From assembly GCF_050920415.1 (NCBI RefSeq), contig NZ_CP169309.1: a DNA stretch of 64,000 nt, one strand, 5' to 3'. Origin of the DNA: Escherichia coli. Its GTDB lineage: Bacteria > Pseudomonadota > Gammaproteobacteria > Enterobacterales > Enterobacteriaceae. The notes under the pieces are model-generated. The model saw nothing but the letters and a program-made list of their open reading frames with translations. It was not told the DNA's origin and did no database searches. This document shows, piece by piece, positions 31,749 to 32,085 of this stretch. The translations under genes and the position numbers were made by a program. Each line of letters begins with the position of its first letter. The first letter of the stretch is position 1.

Positions 31749-32085
31749 TGAAGAATCTTTACCGGAGTGTGAGCCAAATCACTCGCGATAAGTTTGAGCG
31801 AACAATGCCACAGGCGTAATGTTGTCCGCTCAGACTCTGACGGCACAGGATTTTGTCCTTCCACACAGAAACCGCCATTGGCGGTTTTCCGCTGCATAAT
31901 CCTCAGGATTATGTCTATAGCAAAGAGTTGTATATCAAGGCACATTGATGCCTTTATCGCCGTCGGAGCACGTCCGGCGGCGCTATTCACGCTGATCTCC
32001 TGTGACTCGACGCGGCAGATAATGTAGTATCTCCGGCAATATTGCCCCTTTGAAGGCTGGCGAATAAGTTGAGGAATCAGAATTA

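Follow-up and report, generated by a model that had tools for sequence, protein, structure and literature searches.

The short interval between ygiV and parC in this chromosome of E. coli was found, with a probability that we put at about 0.88, to be the sum of two independent states: a site downstream of ygiV that is unoccupied by the mqsRA toxin-antitoxin module, and a copy of ygiS that has been eroded. The initial annotation had described a missing ygiS-mqsRA segment; both elements are absent here, but not as one lost block, since the mqsRA site is unoccupied and ygiS was deleted separately. The feature is ordinary strain variation, known biology in a rare allele, and nothing in it goes beyond known genome dynamics.

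The ygiV-parC interval and the mqsRA site

The stretch of DNA analysed (64 kb, referred to throughout as the window) runs opposite to the K-12 map. On the minus strand are qseC (28664-30013) and qseB (30010-30669), and on the plus strand ygiW (ending at 31213), ygiV (31266-31748) and parC (32086-34344), with plsC and then ftsP located 3' of parC. Both genes bordering the interval are intact: ygiV, annotated as such in the near-identical genome MFDS1022581, has an open reading frame of 160 amino acids with a GyrI-like domain alone (Pfam, E = 2e-36) and its product is 98.1% identical to K-12 YgiV, while parC has an open reading frame of 752 amino acids annotated under that name. With ygiV ending at 31748 and parC starting at 32086, the spacer measures 337 bp, compared with 2,775 bp (~2.8 kb) in K-12-type genomes, in which mqsR, mqsA and ygiS lie between the two genes. 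The short gap pointed out in the initial annotation was thus confirmed, as was the K-12 gene order given there; when the K-12 interval was checked for direct adjacency of ygiV and parC, it was found to carry mqsR, mqsA and ygiS.

The K-12 locus (ygiV-mqsR-mqsA-ygiS-parC, b3023-b3019) agrees with the window in the flanking genes, their order and their orientation, the flanks being 96.7-98.3% identical (blastn), and the window differs from it by being without the 927-bp mqsRA module and ~1.5 kb of ygiS. Two mechanical open reading frames crossing the spacer (77 amino acids on the plus strand and 86 on the minus strand) matched no Pfam family. Elsewhere in the window, mdaB and ygiZ are separated by a 316-bp spacer alone (27970-28285); in the B2 strain clone D i14, two genes are inserted between them, one hypothetical and one for type VI secretion of the Hcp family (positions 888-2080 of locus L004).

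Pairwise blastn against K-12 placed the unoccupied mqsRA site (TG followed by AAGAA) at 31749-31755. Window positions 31200-31750 correspond to positions 5001-5551 of the K-12 locus (L003) and 31756-31825 to positions 6479-6548, with K-12 having the mqsR-mqsA module in place of the 5 bp at 31751-31755. The site is likewise contiguous and without mqsRA in B2, O55:H7, E. albertii, E. whittamii and SCPM-O-B-8794. In B2 (clone D i14), O55:H7, E. albertii and E. whittamii the ygiV stop is contiguous with the ygiS upstream region, as in the window; these genomes keep an intact ygiS of 535 codons, whereas the window has only crumbs of the gene. Polarity was assessed from a YgiV scan of species-representative genomes, which gave five Escherichia loci, and in E. 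albertii, E. whittamii and 'E. coli' SCPM-O-B-8794 the order was ygiV-ygiS-parC with an intact ygiS, no mqsRA and sequence running unbroken across the site. Because these outgroup loci are contiguous and without mqsRA, the empty site is taken as the older state and mqsRA as the insertion.

In a sample of 5,426 complete E. coli genomes, mqsRA was present in 2,299 (42%) and absent from ~58%. The mqsRA-free site after ygiV is, judged from these comparisons, both the ancestral and the majority state in E. coli. Among the 2,299 carriers, identity of the module never falls below 99%, and it is always chromosomal and at one place per genome, while the genes flanking it differ by 2-5% between lineages, a pattern consistent with a single recent acquisition of mqsRA. 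What follows the ygiV stop codon directly in the window would be the ancestral attachment point for the module, never occupied.

K-12 MqsR (98 amino acids, a RelE-like RNase toxin) and MqsA (131 amino acids, an antitoxin with a zinc-binding N-terminus and a helix-turn-helix) were searched against the 64-kb window with tblastn and neither returned a match (best E-values of 1.5 and 1.7, respectively); the site 3' of ygiV holds 7 bp and not a toxin-antitoxin module. A type II MqsR/MqsA system comprises both genes, with mqsA following mqsR directly, and neither was found in the window. As a proxy for the whole genome, a chimeric query was used in which a rare accessory segment of the strain (2 kb) was combined with the K-12 mqsRA module. 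This query matched the MFDS1022581 chromosome at one place, the accessory segment, with no mqsRA-like DNA, and none of the plasmid records of the collection was matched. At the sensitivity of a nucleotide search, the near-identical genome MFDS1022581 has no mqsRA, and the absence of the module proposed in the initial annotation was upheld in the window by tblastn and in that chromosome by nucleotide comparison.

The remnants of ygiS

The anatomy of the spacer was resolved by pairwise blastn against K-12, B2 and B1-type strains followed by exact k-mer mapping. Immediately after the mqsRA site, 31756-31825 (plus strand) is what remains of the DNA upstream of ygiS (-101 to -32 relative to the gene), 98.6% identical to the K-12 mqsA-ygiS spacer; the segment from -31 to +232 is absent and with it the TATAAT box, the ribosome-binding site and the start codon. 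Internal crumbs of ygiS follow at 31826-31859 (plus strand), where 33 nt are 91% identical to the gene by blastn and exact k-mer matches were found. The first 8 nt (31826-31833) possibly come from ygiS nt 233-240, a match that taken alone is within chance expectation, and are followed by ~26 nt from ygiS nt ~322-347 (codons 108-116), ending at 31859, so that ~26-34 nt in all are kept from codons 78-116. A TCAG microhomology is present at the join of ygiS nt 240 and 319. The next 7 nt (TCCACAC, 31860-31866) have no 7-mer match anywhere in native ygiS. Positions 31867-31879 (plus strand) are a 13-nt exact match, AGAAACCGCCATT, to ygiS nt 896-908 (codons 299-303, EKPPF); the 13-mer is exact in the K-12, B2 and O55:H7 alleles, and the match to the E. 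albertii allele reaches 31866 (CAG).

The 3' remnant of ygiS occupies 31878-31948 (plus strand) and consists of the last 71 nt of the gene, that is 23 codons and the stop; blastn identity starts at 31878 and is ~98%, tblastn aligned it to YgiS residues 513-535 at 95.7%, and the NCBI pipeline PGAP marks a partial pseudogene at its counterpart in MFDS1022581. From 31949 to 32085 (plus strand) the native ygiS-parC intergenic region is undisturbed, lying within a 423-nt block 98.3% identical to K-12 and invariant among the five scar carriers aligned, and parC therefore keeps its native 137-bp upstream region.

All the ygiS fragments are colinear and in their original orientation. Homology in a syntenic position together with loss of coding capacity (no ATG, fragments in different frames) identifies the locus as a ygiS pseudogene. 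The window encodes neither MqsR nor MqsA, and the locus yields no YgiS, a periplasmic substrate-binding protein of the SBP_bac_5 type. The arrangement indicates that ygiS was cut down by at least three and probably four deletions with microhomologies of 1-4 nt, the number being uncertain because the 8-nt match is within chance expectation and non-colinear matches of 8-9 nt also occur. Successive deletions would have removed the promoter -10 box, the start codon and ~95% of the coding sequence. Post-deletion decay was considered as a source of the mismatches to ygiS and was rejected: two of them, CAG in place of GAG at 31846 and 31866, are common to the E. albertii and SCPM-O-B-8794 alleles, and these differences are for that reason regarded as old allelic ones.

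A single deletion that took out a K-12-like mqsR-mqsA-ygiS block and left an inverted repeat (described below) as its scar would also yield a compact junction, and the K-12 arrangement that it presupposes is present in 42% of genomes. Such an event is very unlikely, as the 70 bp of mqsA-ygiS spacer directly after the ygiV stop region, followed by three to four colinear crumbs of ygiS, could not result from one deletion. Across the mqsRA site, moreover, the sequence is shared with outgroups in which the module was never present, and no fragments of mqsRA were found by tblastn. Two independent states, an empty site and a separately eroded ygiS, best account for the spacer.

Stepwise erosion of pseudogenes by deletional bias in bacterial genomes was reportedly set out by Mira, Ochman and Moran in 2001, and the ygiS locus of the window resembles it in the reduction of an inactive gene through several small to medium-sized deletions, with colinear fragments and microhomologies of 1-4 nt, and with nothing different in kind. 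What is unusual by comparison is the perfect palindrome formed at one junction in the window, where two native inverted 9-mers meet.

The palindrome at the deletion junction

An inverted repeat at about 31869-31887 had been noted initially as either a ygiV terminator or a recombination scar. It proved to be real and slightly longer than first described, a perfect 19-bp palindrome with 9-nt arms, 100% complementary, around a single T (AAACCGCCA-T-TGGCGGTTT, 31869-31887). Another palindrome, CATAATCCT-C-AGGATTATG, at 31895-31913, comes from the native 3' end of ygiS and matches at 8 of 9 arm positions in K-12. The spacer thus contains two perfect inverted repeats (9-nt arms, loop of at most 5 nt), which is more than chance would provide, since such a repeat appeared at least once in only 1.0% of the runs when the spacer was simulated with a first-order Markov model, and twice or more in 0.2%.

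Both arms of the first palindrome are native to ygiS, the left at nt 898-906 and the right at nt 1539-1547, 632 nt apart in the intact gene. The palindrome sits exactly on the junction of a deletion of ygiS nt 909-1539, with a TT microhomology, so that of the two options the scar was substantiated, as a deletion scar inside the ygiS remnant. The last deletion (nt 909-1539) would have joined the two native inverted 9-mers through TT and so created the palindrome. When all possible deletions of at least 50 bp in the native interval were considered, a fraction of 8.6e-5 juxtaposed a perfect 9-nt inverted pair; juxtaposition of the arms is on this account unlikely to be due to chance, and for the palindrome to be a mere by-product a structure-guided mechanism or selection would be needed. 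The arms may have helped to bring the deletion endpoints together, or the junction may have been favoured. We infer that the palindrome is no functional element and arose incidentally from deletion, a process in which pairing between the arms may have acted as a guide.

An association of deletion endpoints with palindromic or quasi-palindromic DNA is a concept said to go back to Glickman and Ripley in 1984. As in such cases, the endpoints in the window abut complementary sequences able to pair and a TT direct-repeat microhomology is present at the join. Classically, the stem tends to be lost with the loop, whereas the window keeps both arms and has lost only the 632-nt 'loop'.

Alternatively, fold-back or template switching during the deletion could have copied the right arm in inverted form to give the left arm, which would then not be a fragment of ygiS at all. 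Templated insertions are well known at deletion junctions, and only 2-3 bases (AG or CAG) beyond the 9-nt arm favour an origin from ygiS nt 896-908. An exact native copy is nevertheless present at nt 898, colinear and between the previous crumb and the 3' remnant, and ygiS would contain such a 9-mer by chance with a probability of ~0.006 (estimated as 1,600 positions x 4^-9), and less with the extra bases, which makes templating quite unlikely. Conversion of a quasi-palindrome (K-12 AAACCCTACGTTGGCGG to AAACCGCCATTGGCGG, with CTACG replaced by GCCA) was also considered and was rejected on the basis of the exact 13-nt native source at ygiS nt 896-908.

Inverted repeats are typical of transposon ends, and the common B1-type allele at this locus contains mobile debris in the form of a group II intron remnant, both of which would suit a reading in which a mobile element left the locus along with the missing genes and the palindrome marks its ends or footprint. 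This is scarcely credible: the arms are 1 nt apart and consist of native ygiS coding sequence, no target duplication was found flanking the palindrome, and the core of the scar occurs nowhere else in any E. coli genome of the collection of 5,426, being confined to this locus in 13 genomes.

A functional role was weighed against the deletion by-product preferred here. As RNA, the palindrome is predicted to fold at -12.5 kcal/mol (z = -2.6) into a hairpin with a 9-bp, G+C-rich stem (5 G-C pairs) and a 3-nt loop. A consensus terminator scan of 31200-32200 called no terminator. The sequence 3' of GGCGG is UUUUCCGC, with only UUUU and then CC, and these U residues pair with the upstream AAA, so the run of at least 5 U in the 8 positions right after the stem that characterises an intrinsic terminator was not seen. 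The terminator option for ygiV consequently found no support. A search of 31650-32150 on both strands against Rfam gave no match at E <= 1.

The palindrome and neighbouring hairpins might still be a selected element, serving as a terminator or insulator against readthrough from ygiW-ygiV into parC after the loss of 1.6 kb of ygiS. The hairpin is stable and specific to the scar (K-12 has no counterpart of the fold), folding of 31860-31925 gave z = -6.5, a random deletion would make such a palindrome with a probability of only ~1e-4, and the palindrome is invariant in the five carriers aligned. Against this stand the null result of the terminator scan and the consumption of the 4-nt U tract by A-tract pairing, together with the absence of a match in Rfam. 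Invariance among close relatives provides no covariation signal, and a hairpin further upstream (31791-31836) is not conserved, being weaker in the four remaining aligned carriers. Overall, a selected element is unlikely.

Distribution, lineage and significance

The interior of ygiS was present in 4,056 of the 5,426 complete genomes (75%). A ygiS-less junction with a 545-bp spacer, designated type C, accounted for 1,354 (25%), and the exact scar of the window (type D) was found in 13 (0.24%). The ygiS-less genomes number ~1,367 of 5,426, essentially none of them with mqsRA, and the ~2,299 mqsRA carriers all keep ygiS; the two groups must be mutually exclusive to within ~3 genomes because the counts add up only in that case. 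It had been suggested that the absence of mqsRA says something about the lineage. Being the majority state, that absence says little, but the rare ygiS scar (13 of 5,426) is a lineage-informative trait.

The type C junction (B1-type strains, e.g. TW10590) is like the window in being without mqsRA and ygiS and in retaining the upstream region and the 3' end of the gene. It arose in an independent event, as it keeps the ygiS promoter and first 22 nt and has no palindrome at the junction. Its filler (TW10590, positions 3627-3915 of L002) is ~236-289 bp, single-copy and foreign, and starts with GTGCG; blastn aligned it at 74-92% to the 3' ends of group II introns that lie next to ltrA on plasmids of Polaromonas, Cupriavidus, E. 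coli and others, and it had no match in Rfam. In type C genomes, loss of ygiS seems to be linked to a group II intron, of which a remnant without an open reading frame is left.

Independent erosion of ygiS with other breakpoints was observed in Escherichia sp. MOD1-EC7003 and Escherichia sp. E1V33. Derivation of the scar from either of these eroded alleles was rejected, as the retained fragments are not nested. Together with types C and D these point to at least four independent losses of ygiS in Escherichia. The right breakpoints in MOD1-EC7003 (L009, 7481-8062) and E1V33 (L011, 3689-4280) are ~7 nt apart, near ygiS codon 452, and may reflect coincidence or a local deletion hotspot.

A broader proposal would be that loss of ygiS is selected and not neutral, with mqsRA-free lineages gaining by its deletion, and that the palindrome has been retained as an insulator of parC against readthrough; taken jointly, these claims are unlikely. 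If true, selected loss of ygiS would fit the disputed model in which YgiS imports deoxycholate and MqsR degrades ygiS mRNA.

The window aligns to MFDS1022581, a South Korean food isolate, apart from one IS2 extra in that genome, and the 37.6-kb block that includes the junction has 3 mismatches; no further differences were found between the two. The IS2 (L014, 11015-12343) is located at the equivalent of ~12344-12350 of the window, from which it is absent, in a fimbrial 'pilus assembly protein' gene of a chaperone-usher operon near ribB. No other complete genome exceeded 98.7% identity at full coverage over 24 kb. The flanks of the scar are about equally distant from A, B1 and B2 references (97.1-97.7% identical) and are 96.6-97.6% identical to an E reference, and the phylogroup is not assignable from a 64-kb window.

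Within the remnant of the ygiS upstream region, the other four carriers aligned show GCTATCAG, a variant resembling that of outgroups, at a place where the window is K-12-like. At 31787-31809 there are 6 differences in 23 bp between the window and MFDS1022581 on the one hand (K-12-like, GCGATAAGTTTGAGCGAACAATG) and the other four aligned carriers on the other (GCTATCAGTTTAAGTTAACGATG, which is partly common to outgroup species), a pattern that suggests gene conversion over a very short tract within the scar haplotype. From the CAG variants common to outgroups, and from the K-12-like patch as opposed to the outgroup-like variant of the other carriers, the scar haplotype is judged to be old and to have since been reshuffled by recombination.

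Other features of the window were recorded. An accessory two-gene insert (a 'membrane protein' and an ankyrin-repeat/hypothetical protein) lies between ftsP and ygiQ at 36853-39213 and occurs in 13 of the 5,426 genomes; among the insert carriers listed, MFDS1022581 is the only one that also has the ygiS scar. Between hldE and yqiK, at 6450-7183, there is a tandem pair of ~360-bp units that are 95% identical, each carrying a type I toxin gene of the Ibs family (annotated in MFDS1022581 at L014 5189-5248 and 5566-5625).

In pan-genome work mqsRA and ygiS both behave as accessory genes (PMC11390585), and four reference phylogroups of E. coli have no conserved type II toxin-antitoxin system in common (PMC7167474). 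The allele of the window is rare, and its palindrome-forming junction amounts to a footnote. The scar provides a compact and easily scored marker of a rare E. coli haplotype (13 of 5,426) and has little import beyond strain typing. Protection against deoxycholate by MqsR through cleavage of ygiS mRNA is a disputed proposal (PMC6918082), and models of MqsR/YgiS bile tolerance based on K-12 would be inapplicable to this strain because it appears to be without both YgiS and MqsRA. The ancestral and majority absence of mqsRA, with ygiS as a recurrent target of loss in the genus, forms the context in which the disputed physiology of MqsRA is to be seen.
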